From: a virus
Taxonomy: Duplodnaviria > Caudoviricetes
Length of the DNA: 64,000 nt
Direction: 5' to 3' (one strand)
Virus record (IMG/VR): IMGVR_UViG_3300032327_000953
Coordinates: 64,001 to 128,000 of that record
The notes beneath the pieces were generated by a model, which made no database searches, was not told where the DNA came from, and worked only from the letters and a program-made list of their open reading frames with translations. Position numbers and translations under genes: made by a program. Below, one piece after another: positions 37,237-63,423 of this stretch; position 1 is the stretch's first letter, and the number at the start of each line of letters is the position of its first letter.

Positions 37237-39276
37237 TTAGTTCTTATATATTCCTTTATATATATCGTCATTCGCACCTCCAGTAAACCACTCTGGCCCC
37301 TTATATAGTTTATCATCATCAGATGGTGCTATGTTTGTTCTAAAGTCACCAATCATATTATATTCCATTGGTTTCATTGCTCTGGCAAGCTGTCTGGCCA
37401 ACATGTTAGCTATAACTAATGCGCTATATCGGTCTTTTCTTAATCTTCCTTTTTTGCCATTAGGCATTTTAACTTCTGGAGTATCCCATCTATCTCTAGC
37501 ATTAGAACCAGTACTAGTTTGAGTCATAACTATAGTAGTTAATTCATTTTTCAATTCTTCTATTTCTAAAATACATTCGCTATATGTATCATATATTGGA
37601 TTTAAATCTGTAGAAACTATATCTCTACCCTCAGCATCAAGAGCTAGTCCTAATGTAAGATTATCAAAGCGTGGAAATAATAATAACTTATCTTCTAGAT
37701 CTTTACGTAAACCATGATTAGCCTGTGCTGTCCAATCGGCTTTAGCAAATTGCACTAATTCTAGAATATGTAATCCTGCTTGATCATCAGTATCTCTAGA
37801 TTTATTTGGATCTACTGCTGGCCATATTAGATTTTCTCCTTCTTCTAATTTTGATGGATCATGAAATGCTTCTTCAATTGCCACACCACCACCCTGAGCA
37901 TCCATTCCTATTCGTATGGGAGGAAAACTTTTCATTAGATTGCGAATTTTTCTACAACAGAATCCATAAAAATCATGTTCATTAATTAATCCAGTTTTCT
38001 GTCTTTCTTTAAAATTAGCTCGATTAGTAGACCATCCATATACTACCCTATTATGATCATGATGAACTTCTATAATTACTATGCTAAAATTATCTTGTTC
38101 ACTAGCTGGGTCGATTCCATAAACATATTTACAGTCAGGATTGCCTTTTGTGGATGCATCAAATATAATTGATTTATCATTAACTTTAATATTATTAGAG
38201 TCTCCCACAACGCAGCTCTCAATTAAACTTCTTCTGAAGAATCCTTCGCTATCGCTAATAAAACAAGCAGCATATTCCATATTATAAATACCAGAATGTA
38301 TAGTAGCTTTTGCTCTACTTACTTGCTTATCATCCATGAATCCTTTTGGAATTAATTCATACGGGATACGAATGATTGAATAATCTTGCCAATTAAAATT
38401 ACTGGGAACTTCTCCTTTAAAAATTTCTTCTAATTTTCTAACATCTCCTCTGCTTTCAATAATTCCCTTGTATCTTTTCCAATAACTGGCAAAATGCTTG
38501 AAACCATAATCAGCAGTTCCAGATATGATGGCTTGATTTCCCATTTTGAAATTAATAATATCTAATTCATCATTCCATAATCCTGCTTCAATCATAGCTT
38601 GTCTTTTAGCTTGCTCTTTAACATTCTGTATTGGACTAGCGGATACGGCAGCGAATCCCGATACTACTGTCTCATAAATCTCTGGACTTATAGATGCAAA
38701 TTCGTCTGCAATGATAATATGGGCACGCAAACCTCTAATCTTACTTCCATCACCCATAGGAATAGCTATGGTCCAACTATCTCCTAGTCTCATAGTACAT
38801 CTATCAACGTCTCTTCTTGGTCCGTCATCATTGCCATTAAAAATACTTCTTAATATTGGACTACCTCTCCAAATAGTTTCCATATATTCAAAAATAATCT
38901 TACTCTGACGAAAAGCAGCACCGACAACCACAATCTTGGTTCCTGGAAAGAATGTCATTCGTAAAATACAGTATAATGATAGAAGAAATGATTTACCCCA
39001 ACCACGACTTGCAACATACATGGGAAATGCTCGTACCCAAAATTCTTGCAAAATACAAATCTGCATAGGATGCAACTCAATATTGAAAAGAAGTTTACAT
39101 GTTGATCCAATATATTTTGGATTTCTCAGTATCCTCATTAAATGAAGATCTGGATTTTCTATCTCCTTTTCAGTTCTATTGATCATAAGATTATGACCAA
39201 GAGATAATGAAGATATTTCTCCTAAGCCTAACCAGGCATCGTCAAATCTTGTTGTTTGATTTACTGTGGATTTCAA
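37237..39276 (-). CDS. terL: Terminase large subunit
   Basis: Walker A ASRGWGKS, Walker B IIADEF, KIRGLRA and nuclease YGIDPA motifs. Confidence 0.92.
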   Translation of the reverse strand: MKSTVNQTTRFDDAWLGLGEISSLSLGHNLMINRTEKEIENPDLHLMRILRNPKYIGSTCKLLFNIELHPMQICILQEFWVRAFPMYVASRGWGKSFLLSLYCILRMTFFPGTKIVVVGAAFRQSKIIFEYMETIWRGSPILRSIFNGNDDGPRRDVDRCTMRLGDSWTIAIPMGDGSKIRGLRAHIIIADEFASISPEIYETVVSGFAAVSASPIQNVKEQAKRQAMIEAGLWNDELDIINFKMGNQAIISGTADYGFKHFASYWKRYKGIIESRGDVRKLEEIFKGEVPSNFNWQDYSIIRIPYELIPKGFMDDKQVSRAKATIHSGIYNMEYAACFISDSEGFFRRSLIESCVVGDSNNIKVNDKSIIFDASTKGNPDCKYVYGIDPASEQDNFSIVIIEVHHDHNRVVYGWSTNRANFKERQKTGLINEHDFYGFCCRKIRNLMKSFPPIRIGMDAQGGGVAIEEAFHDPSKLEEGENLIWPAVDPNKSRDTDDQAGLHILELVQFAKADWTAQANHGLRKDLEDKLLLFPRFDNLTLGLALDAEGRDIVSTDLNPIYDTYSECILEIEELKNELTTIVMTQTSTGSNARDRWDTPEVKMPNGKKGRLRKDRYSALVIANMLARQLARAMKPMEYNMIGDFRTNIAPSDDDKLYKGPEWFTGGANDDIYKGIYKN

Positions 39277-39724
39277 GATAATATACCTTATTCATTATGA
39301 ATTCTGCCATTTTTTCTGCATTGCTTGGACATCCGCAAAATACTACTTTGATATTATGATACATTTGCCATTCTAATATGTGTTTCATAATAAAGCTTGG
39401 ACTGATCTTAACTTTATCCCACATTTTCTTAGGTAATGTGGATCCTATCGGATAGCTAAGAACATTCTCTAAGTCAAATTCTAAAAGAATATATGAATGT
39501 TTAATTTTTGAAAGTCTCTCTATTACATCTTTGAATCTGGGTTCAATAATATTATTTGCTATTTCATTAATACTCTTTTTTCTTTCAATAGCTAATAGAT
39601 TCTCTAGTCCCTCAATGCTATAGTCTCCGGTATCTAGTTTTCTATTAGCAATAGCATAGTTATCAAAACTCCATGGTTGCTGCTCTCTAGTATCTACTAT
39701 TATAGTAAAATCATTTTTTATCAT
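39242..39724 (-). CDS. ERCC4-type nuclease
   Basis: IIVDTREQ, LDTGDYS and IERKK motifs. Confidence 0.85.
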   Translation of the reverse strand: MIKNDFTIIVDTREQQPWSFDNYAIANRKLDTGDYSIEGLENLLAIERKKSINEIANNIIEPRFKDVIERLSKIKHSYILLEFDLENVLSYPIGSTLPKKMWDKVKISPSFIMKHILEWQMYHNIKVVFCGCPSNAEKMAEFIMNKVYYLEIHSKSNNKI

Positions 39725-40004
39725 AATGTTCAGCCACTATTTTTAGGAAAACTGCCTCATAAATTGCTTCCATGCCCGTTATCATCTTATGATGTTCTTT
39801 GCATAAGGTGATTCCATTTTTTGGTTCAAATCTTAATCCAGGATAATGCGCCCATTGTTTAATATGATGAGCATTAAGTTTTTTCTTAATAGAACATCCT
39901 GGCCATTGGCATTTGTGATTATCTCGTGAATAAACTTCTTTGCGCCATTTTTTGTATAAAGGATCATTGAAATCTCTAAGCATGAGTAAAAACCTCAATA
40001 TCAT
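39711..40004 (-). CDS. HNH endonuclease (packaging-associated type)
   Basis: RDNHKCQWPGC, AHHI and NGITLCKEHH motifs. Confidence 0.85.
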   Translation of the reverse strand: MILRFLLMLRDFNDPLYKKWRKEVYSRDNHKCQWPGCSIKKKLNAHHIKQWAHYPGLRFEPKNGITLCKEHHKMITGMEAIYEAVFLKIVAEHYDKK

Positions 40005-40968
40005 TAGTTACCATATCTTTTACTAAATCTTCAAAACTAATTTGTGGAAACCATTTTAATTCTCGTCTAGCCCTATCGCTCTTACCGCATAAATAATCTA
40101 CTTCGGCCGGACGATATAAGTTATGGTCTATCTCAACATGTTTAGTATAGTCTAAGTTAACATATTCAAATGCTGTTTTAAGAAACTCAAGAACAGTATG
40201 GGTTTTACCAGTACAGATAACATAGTCTTGAGGATAATCATTTTGTAACATTAAAAACATTGCATTCACATAATCCTTAGCATGGCCCCAGTCTCTGCTA
40301 GAATTAAGATTACCGAGTTTTAAATTTTCTTTAATATTATGATTTACTAGTTGTCCTATATATTTGGTAATCTTTCGTGTAACAAATTGTTCTCCTCGTC
40401 TCGGACTTTCATGATTAAATAAAATACCACTCACGGCAAATATACCATATGCTTCTCGATATATCTGTACTAATCTGTGAGATGCTAGCTTTGCAACACC
40501 ATAAGGACTTTGTGGTAATAGTTCTGTAGTTTCATCTTGATATTTAACGCCATCTTTATCTGTGCTAAAATTACGACCAAACATTTCACTTGTGCTAGCT
40601 TGATAAAATTTGGTGGTGGGAGATGTTCTTCTGATAGATTCTAATATGTTGACTACTCCAACCGTATCTATTTGAAATGTTGTTGATGGCTGCTTAAAGC
40701 TTGTTCCAACATGACTTTGAGCTGCTAAATTATAAAACTCATCTGGTTGATAATGATTAATAATATAGTCGCAGATACTAGGATCGGTAATATCAAATTC
40801 TTCCAATTGAAACTCTGGATTATCTATTAGATGATTTATTCTTTCAAAATTATTGATACTACTTCTTCTGTGTAAACCAATAACTTTATATTTGTGTTTC
40901 AGTAGTAGCTCCGACAGATAGGAACCGTCTTGTCCAGTGATACCAGAAACTAATGCTATTTTAGCCAC
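39976..40968 (-). CDS. gmd: GDP-mannose 4,6-dehydratase
   Basis: GITGQDGSYL, NLAAQSHV, QASTSEMFG, SPYGVAK, LFNHESPRRG and RDWGHA motifs. Confidence 0.95.
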   Translation of the reverse strand: MAKIALVSGITGQDGSYLSELLLKHKYKVIGLHRRSSINNFERINHLIDNPEFQLEEFDITDPSICDYIINHYQPDEFYNLAAQSHVGTSFKQPSTTFQIDTVGVVNILESIRRTSPTTKFYQASTSEMFGRNFSTDKDGVKYQDETTELLPQSPYGVAKLASHRLVQIYREAYGIFAVSGILFNHESPRRGEQFVTRKITKYIGQLVNHNIKENLKLGNLNSSRDWGHAKDYVNAMFLMLQNDYPQDYVICTGKTHTVLEFLKTAFEYVNLDYTKHVEIDHNLYRPAEVDYLCGKSDRARRELKWFPQISFEDLVKDMVTNDIEVFTHA

Positions 40969-41524
40969 GATATGCTCCTTCTGTTTTTTTCACAACCCAA
41001 CAATCACCATGCATTGTGTTAATATTGGAAAATTTTTCATTTACTGCTTGCTTAACACCAGGATGATAGTGCGAATAATCATGACCAGCTATATATCCAT
41101 TAAATTTAACTTTAGGATACCACGCTTCAATATCTTCTTTAACACATTCATACATATGACACATATCAATAAATACTACATCTAAAGATTTGTCTTCAAA
41201 GTTTTTTGAAGCTTCTAATGAATTTGATTTGATAGTAGTAAATTTTCTATTTCCCATATTATTTAAAAATAGTTGGTATATATCATGTGTTTTAGCTAAA
41301 CTATGAGTATCATCAATTTCTTCAATAGATCCTTTCCAATTATCAACAATAAATACATTAATATTTTTAGATAGTGACTGAATTTTATCACATAAGTAAG
41401 CTGAGCTTTTACCTAGCCAAGCTCCTCCTTCCACAAAGGTACCATTTTCTGGTATGCTATCTATAAGAAAATCAAAAGTTTCTTCGTAATTAAACCATCC
41501 GTCTATTTGATCTGAATTTTTCAA
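40961..41524 (-). CDS. SAM-dependent methyltransferase (Methyltransf_24-like)
   Basis: VEGGAWLGKS, DVVFIDMCH and GYIAGHDY motifs. Confidence 0.8.
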   Translation of the reverse strand: MKNSDQIDGWFNYEETFDFLIDSIPENGTFVEGGAWLGKSSAYLCDKIQSLSKNINVFIVDNWKGSIEEIDDTHSLAKTHDIYQLFLNNMGNRKFTTIKSNSLEASKNFEDKSLDVVFIDMCHMYECVKEDIEAWYPKVKFNGYIAGHDYSHYHPGVKQAVNEKFSNINTMHGDCWVVKKTEGAYRG

Positions 41525-41528: not shown

Positions 41529-42335
41529 TTATTCCTTTACTGTGTCTGGTGTTAAAAAGGGACGATCTATTACTCCGTCTTGATAAGTATGTAGTTCAGA
41601 CATTTTTTTCAAGTTGTTTTGCGCTGCCATACTTAGTATAGCTATTTCCTTACCTTCTTTTTCTCTCAACTCTTCATCTTCCAACATTCGGATTAATCCT
41701 GTCCAACTACTTTTTCCATCTTCTATTCTTTTTATTCTTTGTTCTCGTGTAGCTTTAAGATCTTTACTAATTTTTTGCTGTTCATTAAGAAGCTTGGTAT
41801 ACTCATTAGTGTAATTAGCGATACTGTTGCGGGCAAACGAAAGTTGAGTTTCAAGATTAGCCAGTTTAGGAATATCTCGTTGATCTTCAGGTTTTTCATA
41901 TTCTTTATCAACCTGTCTTTGGAGTTTTTCGGTTTCTGCTATATGACGCTTTCTTTCTTTCATGCTTCTATTAATAAGAATATCAATTGTGATAAATTGT
42001 TTGATCTGTAATTCTTCTGCTGGTAAAACGTCTTCTCTAAATTGTTTTATTAAACCAACCCATGTATCTTCAAAATACTGAAGTTCGCCCGTATCTTCAT
42101 CAAACTGACGTTTAATTTCATTCCAGAATGTTTTGCTATGTAATTTATACTTCAAATAATCATTATTATTTTTTTCAGTATCTGGAATCATTAGAGCCTG
42201 CTCATCAATATATCTTTTAATTGGAGCGGAGCTTCGATTTAGTTGTTCTGCTATTTGATCTATAGTGAGAGATTCAACATTATCTCTAATGAATTTCTCT
42301 TCATCTAGTCCTAGCTGTCCTCGCTTTTTTGGCAT
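41529..42335 (-). CDS. HTH plus coiled-coil protein, possibly terminase small subunit
   Basis: N-terminal LTIDQIAEQLNRS HTH-like segment; lies upstream of terL. Confidence 0.4.
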   Translation of the reverse strand: MPKKRGQLGLDEEKFIRDNVESLTIDQIAEQLNRSSAPIKRYIDEQALMIPDTEKNNNDYLKYKLHSKTFWNEIKRQFDEDTGELQYFEDTWVGLIKQFREDVLPAEELQIKQFITIDILINRSMKERKRHIAETEKLQRQVDKEYEKPEDQRDIPKLANLETQLSFARNSIANYTNEYTKLLNEQQKISKDLKATREQRIKRIEDGKSSWTGLIRMLEDEELREKEGKEIAILSMAAQNNLKKMSELHTYQDGVIDRPFLTPDTVKE

Positions 42336-43006
42336 ACTTTTATCTTATCTATTAGGGTTTTAATATATTGTTGTAGCTTAAGTAATTGTTGTTTAGGAAC
42401 CTTTAATCCATGTTTCAACTTTAAATAGTTCTCTCTATATTCTTGCTCAATATTTTTATCTAAGTAATCTAATAGTTCTTTATTCTCAATTTTATCGACT
42501 AAATTATTGCTAGAAAATACCGAAGCTTCAGGATCCTTCTCAATGTATGTTGGCTGCATAATATTCTTTTTGGTTTCATTTCTGTGAGACCAACTAGCAT
42601 ATAGTTCACAGTCTTGCTTGCTGCTGTATTTTGAACACTGATTCTTAGAACAGGCATACGTCTTATCGAAAAAAGGACAGCCAAAACAAGGCTTGTCAGG
42701 ACGCTGATAGTTATTTCTTTTATAGTTGAAAAGTCGATTGCGTATGTGGGTCCATAGGAAATTTTCCAAGGGACGTTTATTATCGTACTTTTGAACACCC
42801 TCTAAAGCAAAAATATATGCCTGTTGCTTCATGTCATCAAAATCATGATAACCAAATTTGAATTTATATCCTAACCTTTTGCTAATATTTTCAACTACTC
42901 TGATAAATTCTTTTTCATCAATATCATGAGGTAATGAGGACGTTTCTATAACTGGTTTATTCTTGGTGGTTTTCTTGACTATTTTTTTCTTGTTCTTTTT
43001 CTTCAT
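42311..43006 (-). CDS. Phage sigma-70-family factor (region 2-like) with a Cys-rich insert
   Basis: DFDDMKQQAYIFALEGVQKYD...NFLWTHIRNRLFNYKR. Confidence 0.7.
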   Translation of the reverse strand: MKKKNKKKIVKKTTKNKPVIETSSLPHDIDEKEFIRVVENISKRLGYKFKFGYHDFDDMKQQAYIFALEGVQKYDNKRPLENFLWTHIRNRLFNYKRNNYQRPDKPCFGCPFFDKTYACSKNQCSKYSSKQDCELYASWSHRNETKKNIMQPTYIEKDPEASVFSSNNLVDKIENKELLDYLDKNIEQEYRENYLKLKHGLKVPKQQLLKLQQYIKTLIDKIKVCQKSEDS

Positions 43007-43220: not shown

Positions 43221-43454
43221 ATGGCAACATACAAGAAATGGGCCGAATCAGAACTTGAGTTTATCAGAAATAATCAAAAGCTACTAAGTGATGATGAATT
43301 GGCCGCAAAACTAGGACAAATGACTGGTAATGGGGTAACAACAGCTATGGTTAGACGACAAAGACGAAAGCTTGGCATTCAAAAGCCCAAGGGAAGAAGG
43401 CCCAAGAACAGAGTTGTAGAATCTCCAATTAATCAAGAAGTTAGTAATACTTGA
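43221..43454 (+). CDS. Myb/GcrA-like HTH DNA-binding protein
   Basis: KWAESELEFIR...SDDELAAKLG...MVRRQRRKLG. Confidence 0.65.
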   Translation: MATYKKWAESELEFIRNNQKLLSDDELAAKLGQMTGNGVTTAMVRRQRRKLGIQKPKGRRPKNRVVESPINQEVSNT

Positions 43455-43501: not shown

Positions 43502-43529
43502 GGGCGGGTCTAGTACCTGCCCTTTTTAT
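43502..43529 (+). terminator. Intrinsic terminator
   Basis: GGGCGGGT-CTAGT-ACCTGCCC followed by TTTTT. Confidence 0.75.
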
Positions 43530-43547: not shown

Positions 43548-44786
43548 ATGGATATATTAAAATACGAAGAAGAAGTAAAGATTTTTTTAAAGTCAAAATC
43601 TAAAGGAGAGAAACTTATTGAAGAGTATGTTTCTTTTTGTAATTATTTACTTTATATGGATTCTGATATTGTGTTAGAAGTAACTGATAAATTAAAGAAT
43701 AATATAATAGAATATGCTACTAATAATAGTTTAGTTTATAAGGACTTTAATCCAGAAAAGATTTATTCTAGAAAAGATCTGAATAATAATGAATGTTGGT
43801 TTGTTAAAGATTTGAAAGAAGAAAATCAGATATTTAATACTAGTGGTAGTAGTAGCGGAGAACCTTTTAGTTATGGTGTGTGGAACAAATATATTAGATT
43901 CTTAGAAGACGAAAGTCATTATGGAATGATTTTGGATGAATTTCATATTAATAAAAAGAATCCTAAAATATTAATGCTTAAAAAATTAGCATATAATCCA
44001 AGTCATAAAGAATTTTTACATAAGCAAGAAGGAGATTCTCCATATACTCTTCATACTCATAAGAGCATTGATAGCATAAGGTATTTTGTTAATTTTGAGA
44101 ATTACATGAATAATAATGATAGTTGGTTTGAAGAATTGTTGCAGAAAATAAGGCCTATTGTGCCATTTGACATTATTATGATTACTGGGCCAATAATGAA
44201 TTCTTTGGTAAATTATTTGACTAAAAATAATATTGATATAAAGTTGGGGAATTTGATGAGTCAGACCGGGGAGTTTATGAGATTGGTTGATAAGGAAACG
44301 ATTATATTAAAAAAATATGCTAATAATGTTTGTGATCATATGAGATGTTGGGATGGTGGAGCAACTTTTTTTACATGTCGATATGATACGTATCATTTGT
44401 TAGATAATTTGAGTTGGGTAACTCAAGGAGCGGACAATAAGATGATTAGTACTGATTATTTTAATTTATCCTCTCCTTTTGTTAATTATTACAATGGAGA
44501 TCTTTGTGAGATTAAAAATGATTATTCCAGATGTGAGTGTGGAAGATTATATAGACCTTTTAGAATGATAGAGAATCGTCCTTTCGCTTTAAAGGGACCT
44601 GGAAGATTGACCGATATAAAACAACAAATATCTCAATTATCTTTTAGGAATGATTTAAATCAAATTCAATTTGAGAATCTTAGTGTCAGGGTGGTATCAA
44701 ATAGGATTTTGGATCAATCGGAAAAAGAAAAGCTAAAGAGTGTATTAACTGGATATGAGATTATATATCAGGAAAATAACACATGA
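43548..44786 (+). CDS. Adenylate-forming (ANL) enzyme, PaaK/CapK/F390-synthetase-like
   Basis: TSGSSSGEP P-loop-like motif, YYNGDL (YxxGD) and CECGR. Confidence 0.7.
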   Translation: MDILKYEEEVKIFLKSKSKGEKLIEEYVSFCNYLLYMDSDIVLEVTDKLKNNIIEYATNNSLVYKDFNPEKIYSRKDLNNNECWFVKDLKEENQIFNTSGSSSGEPFSYGVWNKYIRFLEDESHYGMILDEFHINKKNPKILMLKKLAYNPSHKEFLHKQEGDSPYTLHTHKSIDSIRYFVNFENYMNNNDSWFEELLQKIRPIVPFDIIMITGPIMNSLVNYLTKNNIDIKLGNLMSQTGEFMRLVDKETIILKKYANNVCDHMRCWDGGATFFTCRYDTYHLLDNLSWVTQGADNKMISTDYFNLSSPFVNYYNGDLCEIKNDYSRCECGRLYRPFRMIENRPFALKGPGRLTDIKQQISQLSFRNDLNQIQFENLSVRVVSNRILDQSEKEKLKSVLTGYEIIYQENNT

Positions 44787-45838
44787 GCTATGATAATAAT
44801 GGGCCGATTTATAGTGTTCTAAATGGCAAATCTCCTTGCGGAGCTTATGATGGTGTGGAATTGGATGGCTCCACAGTTAATGGAGTAGTATTAAATGGAT
44901 CAAATTGTACTGAAGGAAAATTAGGTCCGTATTGCCGAGGAGGAATCGTTTCTGGGTGGTGTTGTTTTGGTCCTTGTTCTAGTAATTCAGACTGCTTGAA
45001 TTCTAATCCTTGTACTAATGGATCTTGTTGTGGTGTTGTTCCTTGTTCTGTTACTCCTAATGATTGTACCACAAGGTTAGTATTTCGTCCTTATTTTGAT
45101 GATTCATATTCAGGCGCTGGTATTACTGGTGATACTGGAGCATGGCCCAAATCTATAAGAGTTATTATCGCTGGAAATGTTAATTCAAATTTGAATATGA
45201 CTGTGGATCTTAATGGTTCAAACTATAGTAATTCTTATGGAGGAGGAAACTGGAACAAAACCCTGTCTCCTACTATGAGCATTAGCGTATCAAGAGATAT
45301 GGGTAATGGATATTCTAGTCCTTTTTACTCAAGAAGTAATCCTTATTATGGTCCAAGTTCTGGGGGAGTTGGTGCTTGGAATGTATCAATTAATGAAATA
45401 GATCCTAACGGAGATCCAGAATGGGGCCCTACTACCATATCAAGTTTTAACGGAACTATTCCAGTACTAGTTCACAGAGTAGTATCTCCATCAGTAACAA
45501 TCGAAGGAGTAGGTAGTTATAATTTGGAATTAAGTCCAATACAAGAACAAAAGACTTTTTTTACTTGTGCTTATTGTTTTGCTACTCTTTACGGAGATGT
45601 TGAGACTAATTATCCTCAGGGAGATAGTCCTAACTATGGATACGGAAGAACTTTTTGGTATAATATGAGTGAGTATACAACAACAAGAGAATATTTTGAT
45701 CAAGGTATAATATCGGGAGGTAAATGTGTTTCGGTTATTACTGGACAAAGAAATGGATATCAATATAGTCCAGCAATAGAGAATCTATCTGATATTACGG
45801 ATGGTCAACGATCAATTAAAATACAATCTATGGGATAA
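44783..45838 (+). CDS. Cys-rich protein 1 with shared N-terminal leader (351 aa)
   Basis: MSYDNNGPIYSVLNGK; 12 Cys in the first ~95 aa. Confidence 0.75.
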   Translation: MSYDNNGPIYSVLNGKSPCGAYDGVELDGSTVNGVVLNGSNCTEGKLGPYCRGGIVSGWCCFGPCSSNSDCLNSNPCTNGSCCGVVPCSVTPNDCTTRLVFRPYFDDSYSGAGITGDTGAWPKSIRVIIAGNVNSNLNMTVDLNGSNYSNSYGGGNWNKTLSPTMSISVSRDMGNGYSSPFYSRSNPYYGPSSGGVGAWNVSINEIDPNGDPEWGPTTISSFNGTIPVLVHRVVSPSVTIEGVGSYNLELSPIQEQKTFFTCAYCFATLYGDVETNYPQGDSPNYGYGRTFWYNMSEYTTTREYFDQGIISGGKCVSVITGQRNGYQYSPAIENLSDITDGQRSIKIQSMG

Positions 45839-45841
45839 TTT

Positions 45842-46204
45842 ATGATGTATAATAATACTGGTCCTATTTATAGTGTTTTAACAGGTAAGGGTGATGGATA
45901 TTTGTGTCAAGGAGGTTTGGGGTGTGCTCCTTGCTATAGTTGTTTAGGAGGTCCTAATACTTATGCTGATTTAAATACCTGTCAACAAAATTGTATAATA
46001 AGAAATCCTTTAACTGGATGTGGGCCATCTGCTAATTGTCCAGAAGGTTATTGTAGGTATAGTACTTGCGTGAGCGAGCAAGATCCTTCCTATAACCCAA
46101 CCATGATGAGCTGCGGATATCCTACACAAATTAATTGTTATACTTATGTAGTATCAGATTCGGAAAGTTCTTTGAATTGTATTTCATATTGTGATAATGT
46201 TTAG
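45842..46204 (+). CDS. Cys-rich protein 2 with shared leader (120 aa)
   Basis: MMYNNTGPIYSVLTGK; 14 Cys. Confidence 0.75.
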   Translation: MMYNNTGPIYSVLTGKGDGYLCQGGLGCAPCYSCLGGPNTYADLNTCQQNCIIRNPLTGCGPSANCPEGYCRYSTCVSEQDPSYNPTMMSCGYPTQINCYTYVVSDSESSLNCISYCDNV

Positions 46205-46273
46205 AAAGAAATTTTAGGTTATCTTGTCAATCTCCAGTCTCTTTCTATAATAAAGAAACCAAGGAGACTTAAT

Positions 46274-46678
46274 ATGATTAATACTAATAATGTGACCGAT
46301 GTTCTGCCAATGTTGATTAAAGATGATGAAACTTTCTCAAAACTAAAGAATGCCTTTCCTTCCATATTAGCGGATCTTGTTACTTTTAAAGATAATCCTA
46401 ATTGTACCTGTCGAGGAAAAGTCTTTAAGTTTTTTACTGAACAGCTAGAAAAGAATAGTTCAGTATTAGATACTTATGTTAAGGACGCTTCAGAAATAAC
46501 TCTTAAGCTACAATCTTTAAATGAAGAAAGAGCTAATAATAATTATGCAGGAAAAGTTTTTGTGATTGATAAGGGTGACGAAGCTTGGAAGAATTTCGCG
46601 GCCAATCTGCCTGGCAAAATGTTTAGGATGTTTAGTGTGGCCGAAAGAGATAATAAAGTTGCAGTTTATTTCTTATGA
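46274..46678 (+). CDS. Hypothetical protein with a CxC motif
   Basis: DNPNCTCRGK; AAGGAG RBS; possible TTGTCA-N16-TATAAT promoter at 46224-46251. Confidence 0.65.
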   Translation: MINTNNVTDVLPMLIKDDETFSKLKNAFPSILADLVTFKDNPNCTCRGKVFKFFTEQLEKNSSVLDTYVKDASEITLKLQSLNEERANNNYAGKVFVIDKGDEAWKNFAANLPGKMFRMFSVAERDNKVAVYFL

Positions 46679-46965
46679 CACTTTTTATAATTTATCTATT
46701 CACTTCATTAGCTCTAAGTTATGCTTGGAGCGATACTGAAATTAGTGTACCATTAAGAAATTTGGTTGCGCGAGTTCCGTACATTAGTAAGCCTTTGCTT
46801 TGTCATGAGTGCGTTAGCTTTTGGATTAGTTTAACTCTTTCGTATTTTTTTAATCCTTTGGAAGATCTGACTCAGCCAATAGTGAGCAACTTATTGAGTG
46901 CTTTCTGTGGATTCTTCATTAATATGATCTTTGTGCGAAAGCATCTGATTCCTTATAAGGACTAA
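46675..46965 (+). CDS. Small membrane protein with CxxC (DUF1360-like)
   Basis: Three hydrophobic segments; KPLLCHECVSFW. Confidence 0.6.
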   Translation: MTLFIIYLFTSLALSYAWSDTEISVPLRNLVARVPYISKPLLCHECVSFWISLTLSYFFNPLEDLTQPIVSNLLSAFCGFFINMIFVRKHLIPYKD

Positions 46966-47010
46966 GGGTGTATATATTATCTCAGTAGTCATCCTCTATA
47001 AGGCGTTTAA

Positions 47011-47427
47011 ATGATATATGATAATAATGGACCAATATATAGCATCCTAGATGGGAAAAATCCAGTACCTCCGTGTTTATATTATTATACAGGGAGGATT
47101 GGTATGGGTGGTCGAAATGAATGGAGATTAATTGGTGGCGGCAATGGAGGTTGTGCTCAGACTAATAGCAATTGTTTTAATTTGACTTTTAATCCATGCT
47201 TACCAGAACAGCCAGGATGTGATCAAAAGTACGGAGAGACTACAACGATTTGTGTTGCTGGAAATGATGGATCAATATCTTCTACTACTAGAACAGTGCT
47301 TTATTACTGTTATAATGATAATGGGGATATTGGTTGTTGGGAGTGTGATACATACGCTGACTATCTCTCATTTTGTCCAGAACGTGTAACGACATATACT
47401 AGTAATAATTGTGATGGTAATTGTTAA
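47011..47427 (+). CDS. Cys-rich protein 3 with shared leader (138 aa)
   Basis: MIYDNNGPIYSILDGK; 12 Cys. Confidence 0.75.
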   Translation: MIYDNNGPIYSILDGKNPVPPCLYYYTGRIGMGGRNEWRLIGGGNGGCAQTNSNCFNLTFNPCLPEQPGCDQKYGETTTICVAGNDGSISSTTRTVLYYCYNDNGDIGCWECDTYADYLSFCPERVTTYTSNNCDGNC

Positions 47428-47451
47428 TTCTTAAAATAAAAAGGAAAATAT

Positions 47452-48054
47452 ATGAAACTAAATAATACTATATCAATAACTCCTCCTCCTTTTACTAATA
47501 ATCTTGGAAAAGTAGTTTATCCAGATACATTGGTATTAGATAATTTAGATTTAGTATTTACTGATAATCCAATAAATAAAACAGTAAGTGTTAATCTTCT
47601 TGGAATACAAACTCCAATTAATCTTTGGTCTGGATCAGAATATGATCTTGTGGGGGACTGGACTCAAGCTCAAGCTGAAGATAAATTAACTGAAATATTA
47701 GGAGATGATCCAGCAGCATTTTTACGATCATTATTTCCAAAAACTTTGGAGGAATATCCAAATAATCCAGGAACAGTTCTGGTTAAAGTTCTAAAAAATC
47801 AAGGAGTTGTAATATCAGATAATTGTTCTTGTACAAAATATATCTTAGAAATGAACGAGAATGGTAATGATTGGTGTGTTGAAAATATAGAAAAAATAGT
47901 AGCTTGGCTCAAAGTAGAAGCAAATAATCTTAAAATTATATTCATAGATAGTGTTGCAAAACTATTAATTATGCGAGCAATTAAAAAATCTCGTAGACTA
48001 TTAAATAATCAGCCGGTTCCAACTAATGACTCAGATCTGGATATTATGGAATAA
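47452..48054 (+). CDS. Hypothetical protein with a CxC...WC domain
   Basis: NPGTVLVKVL...NCSCTKYILEMNENGNDWC. Confidence 0.65.
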   Translation: MKLNNTISITPPPFTNNLGKVVYPDTLVLDNLDLVFTDNPINKTVSVNLLGIQTPINLWSGSEYDLVGDWTQAQAEDKLTEILGDDPAAFLRSLFPKTLEEYPNNPGTVLVKVLKNQGVVISDNCSCTKYILEMNENGNDWCVENIEKIVAWLKVEANNLKIIFIDSVAKLLIMRAIKKSRRLLNNQPVPTNDSDLDIME

Positions 48055-48056
48055 AA

Positions 48057-48260
48057 ATGGTATATAATAATGAAGGTCCAATATATAGTATTTTGAGTGG
48101 CAAACCATGTTCTGGTAATTGTAAGGTACAATGGTATCAGGATGGAGGAGGAGGATGGGATGCTTTTGAAAATAATTGTCCAGCAGGATGTGATTGTGTA
48201 ATTCCTGGGGACTCTGGATATAATGATGAGATACGAACTGTTAACTGTGCAACAGTTTAA
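48057..48260 (+). CDS. Cys-rich protein 4 with shared leader (67 aa)
   Basis: MVYNNEGPIYSILSGK; 6 Cys. Confidence 0.75.
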   Translation: MVYNNEGPIYSILSGKPCSGNCKVQWYQDGGGGWDAFENNCPAGCDCVIPGDSGYNDEIRTVNCATV

Positions 48261-48335
48261 AGTTTGCTGACGGCTTCTGTCGATAAAGTATGTGTGGAAA
48301 CTGGCCAATTGTTTTTTAACCCCTAGGAAAATTTT

Positions 48336-48632
48336 ATGAAAAAGATATTAGCTGGAATATTATTGTTTGTTGCAGGAAATGTTGCTCTTGGTGATGAGGG
48401 TTGGGTTCCTTATGTTTATCATCCTCCGGTTGTGGTTCAACAAGTTCCAGCGGCAGTTGCTGCTCCATACTATTATTATGTTCCAGTGGTAACTATGGTG
48501 CCTGTGGTTCCTCAGTACGTTCCTGTGACAAGTTATCAAAATGTTCTGGTGGAGCGTCGATACCACTGTTTTTTTAAAAGATATGAGGTACTAAGTGTGC
48601 CTCAGACTGTTTATGTTCCAAATCGGTACTAA
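48336..48632 (+). CDS. Putative secreted Val/Pro/Tyr-rich protein
   Basis: Signal-peptide-like MKKILAGILLFVAGNVALG. Confidence 0.6.
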   Translation: MKKILAGILLFVAGNVALGDEGWVPYVYHPPVVVQQVPAAVAAPYYYYVPVVTMVPVVPQYVPVTSYQNVLVERRYHCFFKRYEVLSVPQTVYVPNRY

Positions 48633-48965
48633 TAACTGGCTAATAAACTGGCCAATTTATATATGGTGGTCCCTATTGTGTTTGCACCACCGCGACTTGT
48701 AGTGAAAAATCCGTACCAACCTTCTAAAAACGAAAAAACCCCCTAAGTATATGGTAGGTAAGGACTTATGTCTTGTTGGACGGGCCGGGCTTGACGTAAG
48801 TTGTTTGGTACCAACGACTTATGTCGAGTCAGCGTAAAGTCAGCCGATTCGGCACGATATTTGCACTACAAACCTTACGAAAATGCAAGGAAACTTTTCA
48901 CTTGCAAATAAAGTTTGGGATGGTATAATGTCGATATAAGAATAAGAGAAAGAAAAGAGGAAAAA

Positions 48966-49187
48966 ATGGAAAATCTGAATTATGATCTGGTTTCTGACTG
49001 CTGCGGTGCTGGTTGCTCTTTTGAGACCGGCGAGGGTAAGGATAGAATCGGGATTTGTATGGATTGCAAGGAATGGTGTGGTGTGGTTGAGGATATTCCG
49101 GAAGATGAGGCCGACTATATTCCGGGCCTTGACGATGGCGAATGGGAATCCGATGAGGATTGCTGTGGTGAAGAGGATTTTGCCTAA
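48966..49187 (+). CDS. Small acidic Zn-ribbon-like protein
   Basis: SDCCGA...CMDCKEWC; C-terminal DEADYIPGLDDGE shared with 50144..50392. Confidence 0.6.
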   Translation: MENLNYDLVSDCCGAGCSFETGEGKDRIGICMDCKEWCGVVEDIPEDEADYIPGLDDGEWESDEDCCGEEDFA

Positions 49188-49245
49188 GCCCTTGACAAAC
49201 TAATAGCCGATACTGTATAATAGCAACAACACAAAGGAAAAGAAA

Positions 49246-49467
49246 ATGAAAACTGCAACCGTGCGATCTGTTGGTAGGGTGTATCTGTTGAGCGACATTG
49301 TAAAGGCTATGATGGATCGATCCTATATTGGTCTGGTCGATCCTGCTGGGAAGTGCCATGTCGGTACGGTGAATGGTCTACAGATTGAAGATGGTAGTGG
49401 AAAGAATTATATCGTGACGATATACGCTAATGGTAAATCATCTAAGGTTTTTATCAAGGCTTCTTGA
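49246..49467 (+). CDS. Hypothetical protein
   Basis: 73 aa; own promoter and AAGGA RBS. Confidence 0.6.
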   Translation: MKTATVRSVGRVYLLSDIVKAMMDRSYIGLVDPAGKCHVGTVNGLQIEDGSGKNYIVTIYANGKSSKVFIKAS

Positions 49468-49607
49468 AAGGATATAGTATGTCGATTATTGATTATGTTA
49501 TATTGTTTTCTCTAATTGGTTTCTGTGCATTTATCACCTATACTGTGCATGAGGTGGGTAACGCTATCCATTCCATGCTGAATGACTAACACACTAAGGA
49601 ATATAGA

Positions 49608-49925
49608 ATGACACACGATGAAGCTACTAAGATGGTACATGGTAAGACTAAGCGGAAATCTCGTAAGGTAGGTAACAATACATACGCTGAGATATTGCCT
49701 GATAGTAGCGTAGGTATTATGCTACATGGTACGTATGTGGTAAAGATTCATTCTGACAATAGTGCTACCCTTAACACTGGGGGATGGTATACTAGTACCA
49801 CTAAGGATAGAATCAATCAGTATTCACCTGTACGTGTGTATCAACGTAAGGGAGAATGGTATTTAGAGAATGGTGATGAGTATACTGATGGTGTCGTAGT
49901 AGCTGATAATAATCTGGTATACTAG
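49608..49925 (+). CDS. Hypothetical phage protein
   Basis: 105 aa; LHGTYVVK and TSTTKDRIN pattern; AAGGA RBS. Confidence 0.65.
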   Translation: MTHDEATKMVHGKTKRKSRKVGNNTYAEILPDSSVGIMLHGTYVVKIHSDNSATLNTGGWYTSTTKDRINQYSPVRVYQRKGEWYLENGDEYTDGVVVADNNLVY

Positions 49926-50143
49926 ACGTAAGTCCTTGTCCCTAAACGACTTAGGGCGAGGCCGGCGGGCCCACGTTGACGTAACTCCTTATGTGCCAAC
50001 ATGTTACAGCTAATGCAAACGGCTAGCAAACGGTGTGCCACAACACGCCACGAACCTTACGGTATTGTAAGGAAAGATTTTGCTTGCAAGCTCAAGAATA
50101 CTTTGGTATAATGTCGATATAAGAAAGAATAGGAGAAAGAAAA

Positions 50144-50392
50144 ATGATTACGCTCGACAAGGTTATGGCTGGTGTTCGACAGGTTTTTGGTAAGGATTCC
50201 CACAAGGTGCGTGTGATTCAAGCCGGATCGTCGTTCAAGGTTGAGCCGAAAGATATGGTTCACGATGGGGTGTGGATTCGTTCGGAAAATGGTATTGAAA
50301 ATCAGCTGAACGATCTGTATTATGACATGGTGTGCGAGGCTTGTGCCGACGAGGCTGATTACATTCCGGGCCTTGACGATGGGGAGTTTTGA
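50144..50392 (+). CDS. Hypothetical protein
   Basis: 82 aa; AGGAG RBS; ends DEADYIPGLDDGEF. Confidence 0.65.
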   Translation: MITLDKVMAGVRQVFGKDSHKVRVIQAGSSFKVEPKDMVHDGVWIRSENGIENQLNDLYYDMVCEACADEADYIPGLDDGEF

Positions 50393-50590
50393 ATGAGCGT
50401 TTTTACCTTTCATCGAATAGACACTCACGAATATATCGGTATGTTTTTTGGTAAGGATTGGATGGAGGCTCGAAGTAAGGCTAGTATAAAAAGTGGAATA
50501 CCAGTGGATGATATTCTACCTTGGGCTTTCAATACTGAAACCTTTCCCCTACCTGAGAGGGATGAGACTCCCCACTACCCATATGACTGA
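50393..50590 (+). CDS. Hypothetical protein
   Basis: 65 aa, abutting the upstream stop codon. Confidence 0.5.
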   Translation: MSVFTFHRIDTHEYIGMFFGKDWMEARSKASIKSGIPVDDILPWAFNTETFPLPERDETPHYPYD

Positions 50591-50678
50591 ACCTTACGAC
50601 ATTGTAAGGTTGACAACATAAAATCAGTTTGGTATAATGCACACACAAGAGAACGATAGACCTAAGAGAGAAAAGAAA

Positions 50679-51053
50679 ATGAAAACCAAGTTCCCCATCA
50701 TCGAAAATGCCAAGCGTCAAGCCCGTATGATCTTCAAGGGTATCGCAGTGCCGATGCTCGTGGAAATCCCCGATGATAAGGTTGTGGACGATACCGATTA
50801 CGTCTACGGTGTGACCGATCAAAAGCGGTATGTCGTGACCGAAAAGGTTCTCAAGTTCAATCGTACCGCACTGAAGAATATCGGCAAGGCTCGTAAGGAA
50901 AAGGCTGATCCCCGCTATGTGGGGGGTGAGGATACCATGATCGTTCCGGTTGGCAAGCCGGGTAGCCGTGAACGTGTTGAAGAACTGACCAAGCAGTATG
51001 GTGCGGTTGCTCACCTTGAAATCAGCCCGTTCAGCTTCAAGGGGGAAGAATGA
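50679..51053 (+). CDS. Hypothetical protein
   Basis: Follows a TTGACA-N17-TATAAT promoter; start reassigned to MKTK. Confidence 0.6.
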   Translation: MKTKFPIIENAKRQARMIFKGIAVPMLVEIPDDKVVDDTDYVYGVTDQKRYVVTEKVLKFNRTALKNIGKARKEKADPRYVGGEDTMIVPVGKPGSRERVEELTKQYGAVAHLEISPFSFKGEE

Positions 51054-51404
51054 ACGACTGTACACTAGTGTACGACGTTACACTAGAGACTGAGCGATGG
51101 GTAAAGAGTACGTATGTAAGGCTATATCCTAAGCTATACCTACCCATATGGGTGGGTACTGAACGAATATACAGGAAACGAAAAACTTGACGTAAACCCT
51201 TGCTACTAAAGGACTTAGGGCAAGGGCGGCCCGCCGGGCGCGACGTAAGTGCTTATGCCTCAATGACTTACGGCAACATAGCAAATGCTGTACCAAATCA
51301 TGTTAGAAATACCTTACAGTATTGCAAGGAAAATTTTTCTGCTCTACCCTATTGACAAATGACGATAATAGATGTATAATCATAGGACAAGAAAGAAAGA
51401 GAGA

Positions 51405-51638
51405 ATGAAGATGAGAAAGCCTCCAAAAGTTTCGACCGTCAAGCGTAGCATCAATGGCTATGCCTACAAGTGTGGGTTCACATTTCATCCGAAAGAGGAT
51501 GGATCGTTTGCCCTGTTCGACATTCACATGGGATACTACGTTTGTCGTGGTACTCATGATCGTGTTGTCCAGTTTGTGATGGATGATCTGTGGGCAAGAT
51601 ACTACCGGTCGAATCCTACTCCGGTTAGTCTCAGCTAA
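51405..51638 (+). CDS. Hypothetical protein
   Basis: Downstream of the promoter at 51352; start approximate. Confidence 0.55.
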   Translation: MKMRKPPKVSTVKRSINGYAYKCGFTFHPKEDGSFALFDIHMGYYVCRGTHDRVVQFVMDDLWARYYRSNPTPVSLS

Positions 51639-51755
51639 CCCTACGGACTGGCCGTGCTGCATATAGTCAGTAAAGATAGGGGATCCTTTCGATATTGTAA
51701 GGTGTTGCAGGCTAAAGGTTGATGTGGTAGAATGTCGATAATAGATATAGGAAAG

Positions 51756-51983
51756 ATGACCAGTAACCAAGAGGAAAGTATGAAAAACGCTGTGTTGCCC
51801 CAGAGGTATGATTGGGTGGAGTTTGATTATAAGGGTGAGAACTTCCGTGGTGAGGTTCGTAGGGTTGAAGATAAGCCCAAGGGTAAATTAATGATTGTGA
51901 AAATCGGCCTGACCGAATATCGTTCGTGCTATCTTGACCAGTGTGAGAATCTGACCAATATCCCCCATGAGACGGAGGCTTGA
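51756..51983 (+). CDS. Hypothetical protein (SH3/WYL-like beta barrel?)
   Basis: VEFDYKGENFRGEV...YRSCYLDQC; start approximate. Confidence 0.45.
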   Translation: MTSNQEESMKNAVLPQRYDWVEFDYKGENFRGEVRRVEDKPKGKLMIVKIGLTEYRSCYLDQCENLTNIPHETEA

Positions 51984-52548
51984 ACATGAGAATGATCGAA
52001 TATCCTTTTGTGTGGGTTATGGGGGCTTTCCTTAAAGTGATGGAAACGCTCTGTGAAGTTTGGCAGAGAATTAACGAATATGAGAATATGAAATCTAGGG
52101 GTTATACTCTTATGAAAAGTGATAAGGGTGATGATTTCTGGGTAGGATATGGGGATTGATCCAATAACACTGGAGATACAGGGATGTATCAATTTGATTT
52201 TATTAGTGTTGCTTTTGGCTATATTGTCGGCATTTTACTGTCTGCTAGTATGTCACATATCATGTATATGGAGGAAAATAATGAAATCGAGTGACTACAT
52301 CTTATGGGGGGTATGCTTTACCCTTGGCTGCATTATGACGTATCTCCTTCATCAGTAAGGACTTACGTCGAGGCCGGCCCGCCCCGCGAAGCGTAAGTCT
52401 TTTCCCCACAACACTTTACGTCAACTGCAAAATTTTTCTGTTTGGCATGAAATTATATTTGCGAATTTTCCAAGTTACTGCTTGACACTAGCCGATAATA
52501 AGTGTAGAATCACAACATCACGAACGGTAACCACTAAGGAACAGAATC

Positions 52549-52716
52549 ATGCTGAACGATTTTGACGCTGTGAATCGGATTCTTGCTGAGATGGCCGAAC
52601 TGAACATCGTGGAGCCGATTGACGATCCTAGTATCCAGACCGATTTCTACGACTATGCCGAAGTGGTCGGAATTGATATTGACGATTTCGTTCCTCCGGA
52701 GTATGATAATGCTTAG
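52549..52716 (+). CDS. Small acidic protein (55 aa)
   Basis: Manual translation MLNDFDAVNRILAEMAELNIVEPIDDPSIQTDFYDYAEVVGIDIDDFVPPEYDNA*; AAGGA RBS. Confidence 0.6.
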   Translation: MLNDFDAVNRILAEMAELNIVEPIDDPSIQTDFYDYAEVVGIDIDDFVPPEYDNA

Positions 52717-52776
52717 TGTGATTGCGTTTGTTGCGTCCTATATTGGCCTGTTCTACATTACTACCATTGTGAAGGA

Positions 52777-53034
52777 TTGACCATGAGCTACGAATACGAC
52801 GATGTTGAAGATTTCTACGGTGAGTGCATGGACACTGACCTTTCCGATTATGAGGTTGAGGATGATTCGTTTGATGACAGTATGGATGGTGATGCTGAGT
52901 CTGCGTTGGCTTCCGCTGGATGGGGAACCGATGAGGATTACGGTTACTATGGCGACGATGGAGTAGAAGATTTCCACGCCGATGAGGCTGTGGGATTTGT
53001 GGATTACAATGAAGATGGCCCATATAACGACTAA
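52777..53034 (+). CDS. Extremely acidic protein lacking Lys and Arg
   Basis: About 30 Asp/Glu in 85 aa. Confidence 0.65.
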   Translation: MTMSYEYDDVEDFYGECMDTDLSDYEVEDDSFDDSMDGDAESALASAGWGTDEDYGYYGDDGVEDFHADEAVGFVDYNEDGPYND

Positions 53035-53051
53035 TTGAAAGGAAAGTAATA

Positions 53052-53450
53052 ATGGAATATCGTAAGATTGCAACGGGTATGATTGAGGCTACATACGAAA
53101 ATTATGTACAGTGGAGACAAGATGGTGTGCTGGATGAAGAACTGAATAAGCACAATCAAGAAATTCCCGTATGGGATGAAATGGATGATAATACCAAATG
53201 CTCTGCAATAGAGTATGTTTATCTCAACAGAGATACTATTGAGTTGCATTCGGGACTTGTAGAATCATGGGTACAGGCTACGGCTTACTTTATGATCTAT
53301 GATTTTGCTGCTATTCTCGCATATGACGGAAAGCCAGAAATCGAAATCTTTTTTGATGATTTGGATTTCATGATGGATGAGGATACTTTGGGGGATGAGA
53401 ATGTTCAGGAGCAACTTGGAATTAGTCCAGATTTTGGAGGAAAATTCTGA
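53052..53450 (+). CDS. Acidic hypothetical protein
   Basis: 132 aa; AAGGA RBS. Confidence 0.6.
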   Translation: MEYRKIATGMIEATYENYVQWRQDGVLDEELNKHNQEIPVWDEMDDNTKCSAIEYVYLNRDTIELHSGLVESWVQATAYFMIYDFAAILAYDGKPEIEIFFDDLDFMMDEDTLGDENVQEQLGISPDFGGKF

Positions 53451-53637
53451 GGTTCGCCGTAAACCCTTTGTGCATCAGCACTTAGGGCTTGCGCGGCCCG
53501 CCGGGCGCGACGTAAGTTCTTATACCACAACACTTTATGTCAACCTTACGATATTGTAAGGAAACTTTTTCTGATCTAACCTATTGACTTTGGACGATAA
53601 TAGATATATAATCATAGCAGAAGAAAGAGAGACAGAG

Positions 53638-53811
53638 ATGAAATATCAAGTTGGTGATGTTGTTCAAATGACTAATGGATACGGAATTATCAAGCAAATC
53701 ATTGGAAAGAATGTGCGAGTTCTGGTTTCTGGTCAATACGGATACGGTGAATGGTATACGTTTGATCAGATTGTTTCCCATGCTGCTCTGAGCAGAAATA
53801 AAGGGGATTGA
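53638..53811 (+). CDS. KOW/SH3-like small protein
   Basis: MKYQVGDVVQMTNGYGIIKQI. Confidence 0.5.
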   Translation: MKYQVGDVVQMTNGYGIIKQIIGKNVRVLVSGQYGYGEWYTFDQIVSHAALSRNKGD

Positions 53812-53860
53812 CATCGCGGAAAAGTTGTGGTAGAATGAAATACAAGAAAGAGAGTGAAAG

Positions 53861-54052: not shown

Positions 54053-54193
54053 AATGAAAACAAAAAAGAAAGAGTTGACAGCACACGAAAAAGCTGTTAT
54101 ACTCATGAATCGTGAGACTGATCGTGCAGTGAATCGCGTGAAGATGTTGGAACAGTTGTATCTTGAAACCATGAAAGCAAAGGAAGTTATTAA

Positions 54194-56278: not shown

Positions 56279-56287
56279 GGGGATATC

Positions 56288-63422: not shown

Positions 63423-63423
63423 C

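Follow-up and report, generated by a model that had tools for sequence, protein, structure and literature searches.

A predicted CapK/PaaK-like ligase is genomically coupled to a conserved N-terminal protein tag in uncultured phages

The window analyzed here is a 64,000-nucleotide stretch of DNA (positions 64,001 to 128,000 of IMG/VR virus record IMGVR_UViG_3300032327_000953) and is part of the 238,135-bp record of an uncultured phage. Between positions 43548 and 48260, it encodes a predicted CapK/PaaK-like ligase of the adenylate-forming ANL family together with four proteins that share a 16-residue N-terminal tag and are otherwise unrelated. Across phages, homologues of this ligase are coupled in the genome to tagged genes, and each ligase clade goes with its own type of tag. 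We put the probability that ligase and tag work together, the tagged proteins being what the ligase acts on, at roughly 0.55. The genes at the center of this proposal are as follows (aa, amino acids; Cys, cysteines).

43548..44786, plus strand: CapK/PaaK-like adenylate-forming ligase, 412 aa, assigned on fold and invariant motifs
44783..45838, plus strand: tagged protein 1, 351 aa, 15 Cys; the tag is residues 1-16
45842..46204, plus strand: tagged protein 2, 120 aa, 14 Cys
47011..47427, plus strand: tagged protein 3, 138 aa, 12 Cys
48057..48260, plus strand: tagged protein 4, 67 aa, 6 Cys

A shared tag and its genomic partner

An initial annotation, made from the window alone, had pointed out that the open reading frames (ORFs) at 44783, 45842, 47011, and 48057 share the start M-x-Y-[DN]-N-[NTE]-G-P-I-Y-S-[VI]-L-x-G-K and then diverge. 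Both observations were borne out, with nothing recognizable in common after residue 16. The even Cys counts reported for the three small proteins are likewise correct (14, 12, and 6, the largest protein having 15), as is the overlap of the first tagged ORF with the end of the enzyme gene, the ATG of 44783 lying within the ligase stop codon as ATGA. When a hidden Markov model (HMM) of the leader was run against a six-frame translation of the whole 238,135-bp genome, these four ORFs scored 25-30 bits and the next match 9.8 bits. This genome, therefore, has exactly four tags and one enzyme copy, all contiguous. The leaders differ from one another in DNA by synonymous third-position changes (GGG/GGT/GGA, CCG/CCT/CCA, and ATT/ATA), indicating selection on the peptide rather than on the DNA.

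We searched a profile of the first 30 residues against 1.84 billion proteins (cluster representatives at 50% identity, E<=0.001), which returned 77 cluster representatives of 40-295 aa. Nearly all of the matches begin at residue 1, and in the few others, a Met lies just ahead of the match, the called start seemingly being too far upstream. Most of these proteins are Cys-rich, and ~10 are Cys-poor and rich in Tyr and Gly. The shared leader is real and not a chance resemblance. In its general form, the tag spans 12-30 residues and ends in two hydrophobics, F/Y, S/A, x, L, x(0-2), and K. Close relatives carry tags of the type ...GP[IV]YS-x-L-x-GK, and examples from distant relatives include MRLGE...DVLFSLLDKPPPP, MIDPKLVENWNIIFALADKAC, NVVFSLAKPC, and DILFVMLAKAEGCC. 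Over ~57 distinct tags, the Lys, found 4-7 residues past the aromatic, is the sole invariant residue; the Ser is frequently swapped for Ala, the residue after the Lys is frequently Pro, and no Glu or Asp is conserved at a fixed position. The tag is hydrophilic. Five further new tag matches that we looked up were on 1-5-kb contigs only.

The bodies behind the tag, which we call payloads, range from ~40 to 2654 aa across relatives. The giant among them, in locus L015 (2654 aa), has 455 Cys and 27 STIG1-like repeats, and a tagged protein in L014 has five Laminin_G_3 domains. Other payloads contain DUF285, Big_12 (Ig-like), or an FGE-sulfatase-fold domain, while some tagged proteins of 277-312 aa have zero Cys. 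Several payloads open with (PT)n linkers straight after the tag, and a signal peptide is present in none of the tagged proteins. Judged by their domain assignments, the payloads are of types usual in extracellular binding proteins and appear to be separated from the tag by linkers. The initial annotation had allowed that the leader might simply be the N-terminal strand of a known fold. This is disfavored because linkers follow the tag directly and the bodies are unrelated.

To place the ligase and the tag in other phages, we took in 32 viral and 80 metagenomic loci around ligase homologues. Where the homologue was at least ~33% identical, the next downstream gene was nearly always tag-bearing and frequently overlapped by 4-8 nt. 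In a maximum-likelihood tree, the tag-associated enzymes form a single clade (support 97/94) with two subclades, namely, clade A (16 rows, support 100/100), which goes with GPIYS-type tags, and clade B (28 rows, support 100/95), which goes with hh[FY][SA]L-x-x-K tags. The deeper enzyme branches (<=32% identity) are without a tagged neighbor. A tagged gene lies <=1 kb downstream of 35 of the 44 non-identical clade A and B enzymes, a count that includes two loci overlooked by the automatic classifier (L078 and L055). By contrast, this was true of 0 of the 12 outgroup enzymes. The link between leader and enzyme, which the initial annotation had suggested from the single cluster, thus holds in dozens of divergent loci when the leader is searched across phage metagenomes and scored for co-occurrence with the enzyme, and it tracks the enzyme phylogeny.

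A 150-kb relative rated 100% complete has exactly three tags, all adjoining the enzyme. A 381-kb phage has both tag types; it carries an A-clade enzyme as well as a B-clade enzyme followed by a B-type tagged protein. Five tag-bearing viral fragments were without the enzyme, but because these are only 29-65% complete, they are uninformative. In two further loci, the gene directly after the clade-A ligase (L003:11225-11404 and L004:11199-11393) encodes a protein of 59-64 aa that combines 12 Cys with a hydrophobic signal peptide. Overall, the tag itself and the genomic coupling of the ligase with clade-specific tag types are shown directly by these comparisons.

The ligase and its glycan context

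The initial annotation had assigned 43548 to the ANL family, and the model, the structural matches, and the closest Swiss-Prot entries all bear this out in the form of a PaaK/CapK-type adenylate-forming fold. An AlphaFold 2 (AF2) model built from a 40-sequence alignment has a predicted local distance difference test (pLDDT) score of 90.3 and shows a two-domain ANL fold. In a Foldseek search of the PDB, the top matches all belonged to the PaaK family (BT_0428, ClxA, PaaK1/2, AjiA1, and NatL2; E 7e-17 to 1e-11, TM 0.5-0.58). The closest Swiss-Prot entries are Staphylococcus aureus CapK (3.9e-19), phenylacetate-CoA ligases (PaaK), the indoleacetate-lysine synthetase IaaL, dapdiamide fumarate-DAP ligase, and the acyl-protein synthetase LuxE. 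With CapK, IaaL, the dapdiamide ligase, and LuxE as neighbors, the fold group includes amide-forming enzymes that use amines, even the epsilon-amine of lysine. Profile methods placed the enzyme less readily. No Pfam family matched 43548 at E<=0.1, the sole curated match was TIGR02304 (F390-synthetase-related) at 25.4 bits vs. a cutoff of 251.9, and a profile search of the PDB found ClxA alone (E 0.0016). On the strength of the model, then, we take the predicted fold of 43548 to be of the PaaK/CapK type.

Among 40 homologues, the P-loop TSGSSSGEPF (residues 98-107) keeps G100, S101, G104, and F107 invariant. N316-G317-D318 and G332-R333 are also invariant, although their assignment as A7 and A8 is by motif order only. 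The family has an invariant Cys cluster of its own (C262, C267, C277, C329, and C331). A hinge segment, R344-P-F-x-x-K349-G350, shows no variation within clades A and B but does vary in the outgroup, and K349 at the hinge, conserved in these two clades only, is the only conserved Lys in that part of the protein. More than 300 homologues were found, every one on metagenomic contigs, many of which are 150-460 kb long. None of 185,579 species genomes scanned by pattern and tblastn yielded a relative of the ligase.

The surroundings of the ligase are repeatedly linked to glycan synthesis. Various homologues are fused to GT47, GT2, or GT9 glycosyltransferase domains or to a methyltransferase. A GT2 gene lies directly upstream of the ligase in five loci (L014, L015, L017, L018, and L025), the L018 ligase is followed by an ADP-heptose synthase-like gene, and a dispersed tag cluster in L035 sits among GT34-like and GT2-like genes. 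In the window, the opposite strand carries a GDP-mannose 4,6-dehydratase gene and a methyltransferase gene 2-3.5 kb upstream. A PaaK/CapK-like protein with a role in glycan tailoring is VpsH, which a 2026 mutant analysis based on lipid-linked intermediates found to be required for the addition of glycine to a gulosaminuronic-acid residue of a Vibrio polysaccharide, while leaving the activation chemistry open (PMC13463779).

We also note that the 381-kb phage (L013:12159-12374) encodes a 71-aa acyl-carrier protein (PF00550, E 3e-7) 1 kb downstream of its clade-A ligase, past homologues of the neighbor genes 46274 and 46675 described below. This gene hints that some members of the ligase family may load a carrier protein.

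Neighboring genes and expression signals

The cluster is a plus-strand gene run between two sets of hairpins. Its remaining features, and the two virion genes referred to below, are as follows.

43502..43522, plus strand: terminator-like hairpin bearing a T-run, upstream limit of the gene cluster (hairpin call)
46224..46251, plus strand: sigma-70-like promoter match TTGTCA-16-TATAAT, 11/12, before 46274 (consensus match only)
46274..46678, plus strand: CxC protein (NCTC), 134 aa, membership in the system unproven
46675..46965, plus strand: small membrane protein, 96 aa, CxxC (LLCHEC), DUF1360-like, membership unproven
46967..46974, plus strand: copy of the GGTGTATA motif, 37 nt ahead of the start of 47011
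47452..48054, plus strand: CxC protein (NCSC), 200 aa
48336..48632, plus strand: protein of 98 aa, rich in Pro, Val, and Tyr, signal peptide present; syntenic with the cluster in relatives
48584-48654: terminator-like hairpins, downstream close of the cluster
34989-37187, minus strand: portal gene
37237-39276, minus strand: large terminase

Searches of Pfam, PHROGs, and NCBIfam with all ten cluster proteins gave nothing useful except the weak F390-synthetase-related match. The body family of 45842 is kept in other phages, with the C-terminal ...CVSYCDNV. The initial annotation had noted two CxC proteins (46274, NCTC; 47452, NCSC) and a CxxC membrane protein (46675, CHEC) interleaved with the tagged genes, and they are indeed there; that they are part of the system, as it implied, is not established. 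The gene for 46274 is widespread, with 39-97% identity to >400 phage proteins. The 46274/46675 pair is strongly conserved next to the ligase in both clades, 46675 always occurring with 46274. Elsewhere, however, the pair is flanked by DNA polymerase and helicase genes or follows a PHP/PolIII gene, and in these places the enzyme is absent within 10 kb. Because the pair also occurs in such replication modules without the enzyme, we withdrew it as a component of the system, regard its membership as unproven, and treat it as a conserved phage gene pair bordering a variable region.

Structure-based searches added little to this. The AF2 model of 46274 has a pLDDT of 92, and nothing stands out in fold searches with it (best VIA-align Z 4.7; AFDB clusters E>=0.15); a rank-3 match to the leader-binding region of NisB (Z 4.4) does not rise above noise, and we set it aside. 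We also rejected homology between 46274 and 47452, which have only a local xNCxC in common (hhalign probability 51% over 16 columns). The membrane protein 46675 has no Pfam match at E<=0.1, and in its language-model neighbor clusters (scores 0.90-0.92), PF07098 (DUF1360) is found in only 20-37% of members. The C-terminal domain of 47452, PGT..L..GI..NCSC...MN..G..WC, occurs again right after tagged proteins in two clade-B loci (L017 and L023). This recurrence is suggestive of a link to the tagged proteins, but no more.

The motif GGTGTATA occurs 7 times in the window vs. 1.8 expected. It is found at 7063, 12559, 31843, 37229, 46967, and 60904, usually after TAA/TAAG, and several start codons, among them those of the portal gene and 47011, have it ~35-60 nt upstream. 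It may serve the phage sigma-like factor as a promoter element. The initial annotation had called the motif before 47011 late-type and read it as favoring a late role. The enrichment and the position ahead of the portal gene fit that reading, but an exact copy is absent ahead of the other cluster genes. The motif is consistent with late expression of the 47011 paralogue, and of that paralogue alone within the cluster.

Several features around the cluster are recorded here as separate observations. GC content is ~0.31-0.34 in the tag cluster and 0.40-0.45 in the plus-strand region downstream (48001-64000). Just upstream, the minus strand at 39711-41524 carries an HNH endonuclease-like ORF, the GDP-mannose 4,6-dehydratase gene (TIGR01472, E 4e-114), and the 187-aa methyltransferase-like gene, and in L007 and L008, the HNH and dehydratase genes keep their synteny with the cluster. 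A divergent promoter region is flanked by genes for a sigma-factor-like protein (42311-43006, phrog_1740), a D5-like regulator (41529-42335), and a 77-aa helix-turn-helix-like protein (43221-43454), all three of which are kept alongside the cluster in relatives at 56-79% identity. Farther away, two neighboring minus-strand ORFs of ~375 aa (20302-22569) have beta-propeller-blade-like repeats, Y-x-GGV-x-x-P-x-GDIYFIPF-x(4)-GQKIS, and came to light as chance regex matches. Two small proteins that are otherwise unrelated (48915-49187 and 50144-50392) have DEADYIPGLDDGE[WF] in common.

Mechanism, alternatives, and known systems

The reading we prefer is a two-component, phage-specific tagging module, made up of a CapK/PaaK-type ATP-dependent ligase and otherwise unrelated proteins that bear its tag. 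The ligase would recognize the N-terminal tag, adenylate a carboxylate, and pass it to the epsilon-amine of the tag Lys to form an amide. The carboxylate would most plausibly be a sugar acid or glycan because the ligases are fused to or adjoin glycosyltransferases and because their nearest characterized relatives amidate sugar acids or ligate acids to lysine. In this way, the tag may serve to decorate binding-type modules or to attach them covalently, probably to the virion or in association with it, and 47011, at least, may be made late. The parts of this proposal are not equally secure. That the ligase acts on the tag is rather probable. Display of the products on virions is quite possible, though we would not bet on it at even odds. 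The role of the invariant Lys as acceptor is a tentative suggestion, with amide formation there proposed by analogy with the chemistry of IaaL, VpsH, and CapK, and a glycan origin of the acyl group is doubtful. Taken as a whole, the specific scheme in which the ligase joins the tag Lys covalently to a carboxylate, most plausibly a sugar acid from a glycan that the phage builds or else an acidic group of a virion protein, and so mounts interchangeable disulfide-rich, lectin-like, and Ig-like modules, is likewise one that we hold only tentatively.

A number of results weigh against a partnership of this kind. In the 381-kb phage, six A-type tagged genes are clustered ~140 kb away from the A enzyme. 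In L003 and L004, the clade-A ligase is followed by the 12-Cys signal-peptide mini-protein instead of a tag, and no A-type tag was seen in the 75%-complete genome of this type. L002, L006, and L128 have no tagged gene nearby. In L150, only the last ~72 codons of the ligase gene (1281-1526, 69% identity) are left between the 43221 homologue and the tagged gene, apparently as the remnant of a deletion. Because A-type tags occur in a single lineage of related phages, common descent accounts for some of the synteny. In the enzyme itself, the C-terminal domain is short, and the 40-sequence alignment has no invariant or nearly invariant Lys of the A10 type past residue 350; because of this, it is only from its P-loop and NGD motifs that the enzyme is presumed to adenylate. 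Finally, blastn and tblastn searches of 50,697 cultured-phage records gave no ligase match, so no cultured phage has the system.

The tag could instead be a non-covalent docking or assembly peptide that fits its proteins into the virion or another phage structure, with the ligase a glycan tailor and a mere syntenic neighbor. The Pro/Thr linkers and adhesin-type domains behind the tag would suit such a role, and so would the GGTGTATA motif that 47011 has in common with the portal gene. The ligase is fused to glycosyltransferases and is present in glycan clusters free of tags (L128, L018, and the outgroup clades), and tagged genes far from the enzyme do occur. However, start/stop overlaps, together with a tag type that switches with the enzyme clade in very different phages, are hard to account for without direct partnership. 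The hinge motif is kept specifically in the tag-associated clades, and the sole invariant tag residue is a nucleophilic Lys. On this evidence, we consider docking without the ligase unlikely, although worth keeping in mind. The initial annotation had left the choice between a shared tag on variable modules and a precursor of a ribosomally synthesized and post-translationally modified peptide (RiPP), and of these the shared tag fits better. In the RiPP case, the leader would guide modification of a Cys-rich core and be cleaved after GK, releasing small bioactive peptides. A conserved leader, hypervariable cores, and an adjoining ATP-dependent enzyme are what that would look like, and many tagged products are indeed 40-140 aa long with even Cys counts. 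Still, only three of the four bodies here are short (67-138 aa), the fourth being 351 aa and some in relatives 811-2654 aa. Some are Cys-free, PT linkers and lectin or Ig domains come past the tag, and the residue after the Lys is often Pro. Moreover, the nearest characterized relatives of the ligase tailor glycans or make amides with amines and do not process peptides, and we know of no described RiPP class defined by a PaaK-type ligase. No peptidase, ABC transporter, or RiPP recognition element (RRE) family was found in the cluster genes with Pfam, PHROGs, or NCBIfam, although a novel element could escape these libraries. Given the payload sizes, linkers, Cys-free members, and lack of a protease or exporter, this is the weakest of the readings and a very improbable one.

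Two other roles would make the tag a targeting signal. It might load variable proteins into the prohead for injection into the host, as in phage T4, where the internal proteins are a diverse set whose only common feature is a conserved N-terminal capsid targeting sequence, the same pattern as here (PMC3012670). The tagged genes also lie beside the packaging and portal module. Yet lectin-like, Ig-like, and STIG1-type payloads that reach 2654 aa and carry PT linkers look more like external proteins than like injected cargo, and the coupling to the ligase would go unexplained. T4-type prohead proteases cut after a conserved acidic residue, and the tag has none to offer for such a cut. We therefore regard capsid targeting as improbable to a high degree. 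Alternatively, the tag might be a non-classical export or membrane-targeting signal that, with the CxxC membrane protein, moves disulfide-rich proteins out of the reducing cytoplasm. This would explain why the payloads look extracytoplasmic without having signal peptides, and it draws on the 12-Cys signal-peptide protein in the equivalent slot of L003 and L004, as well as on the DUF1360-like membrane protein and the Sec-secreted protein syntenic with the cluster. However, the membrane-protein pair is also found in replication modules without tags or enzyme, the cluster has no translocase-like component, and the tag is hydrophilic, leaving export with very little probability.

If the ligase does act on the tag, an ANL ligase and an N-terminal acceptor tag of 16 residues would together offer a new enzymatic way to modify or conjugate proteins at a specific site. 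Large uncultured phages would, in addition, be seen to vary their surface or released binding modules by a new principle, and a function would be given to a phage-only enzyme family of >300 members that curated models do not recognize, as well as to no fewer than 77 clusters of orphan Cys-rich proteins. Being small, self-contained, and portable, the pair could serve as a protein-ligation tool. Even if the ligase works on glycans only, the tag marks a large hidden family of phage proteins whose common N-terminus needs explaining.

The closest known enzymes are those of the CapK/VpsH/PaaK branch of the ANL superfamily, to which IaaL, the dapdiamide ligase DdaG, NatL2, AjiA1, ClxA, and LuxE also belong and which the ligase resembles in its predicted two-domain fold, its P-loop [ST]SGS[ST]xGxPF, its NGD motif, and a glycan-gene context like that of CapK and VpsH. 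Members of this branch form an amide with the epsilon-amine of lysine (IaaL), are needed for the joining of glycine to a uronic acid (VpsH), or acylate a protein (LuxE). However, 43548 is only 11-18% identical to them and falls under every curated HMM cutoff. It has its own Cys cluster, a short C-terminal domain, and no conserved A10-type Lys, and its family is seen only in phage and metagenome contigs; the protein-tag amine proposed here is without precedent in that branch.

Among systems built on a short terminal sequence, RiPP precursors and their modifying enzymes have the same conserved N-terminus, hypervariable Cys-rich remainder, and adjoining ATP-dependent enzyme, but the bodies here reach 2654 aa with folded domains and linkers, and no protease, transporter, or RRE was found in the cluster. 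Glycocin clusters, such as that of sublancin in prophage SPbeta, are also phage-borne and combine a leader and disulfide-rich core with a GT2 enzyme and accessory genes for thiol redox. The present cluster has neither a double-glycine leader nor a C39 ABC transporter, its payloads are of much greater size, and the constant partner is an ANL ligase instead of a GT2 enzyme. The T4 capsid targeting sequence is likewise a short N-terminal tag that is all unrelated phage proteins of a variable locus have in common (PMC3012670). The present tag differs in being without a protease-type cleavage motif and in having external-looking payloads and a dedicated ligase partner. Sortase/LPXTG and exosortase/PEP-CTERM pairs come close in logic, with a short terminal tag on unrelated surface-type proteins, one dedicated enzyme family, and tag variants that match enzyme subfamilies. 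By contrast, the tag described here is N-terminal, hydrophilic, and without a transmembrane segment, and its partner is a viral, cytoplasmic, ATP-dependent ligase and not a transpeptidase. Neither the literature searched nor curated family libraries or cultured phages yielded a description of the tag-ligase pairing. A terminal tag with a dedicated enzyme is an already known logic, and the enzyme fold is known as well; what is new is the pairing of a CapK/PaaK-type ligase with an N-terminal protein tag in viruses.

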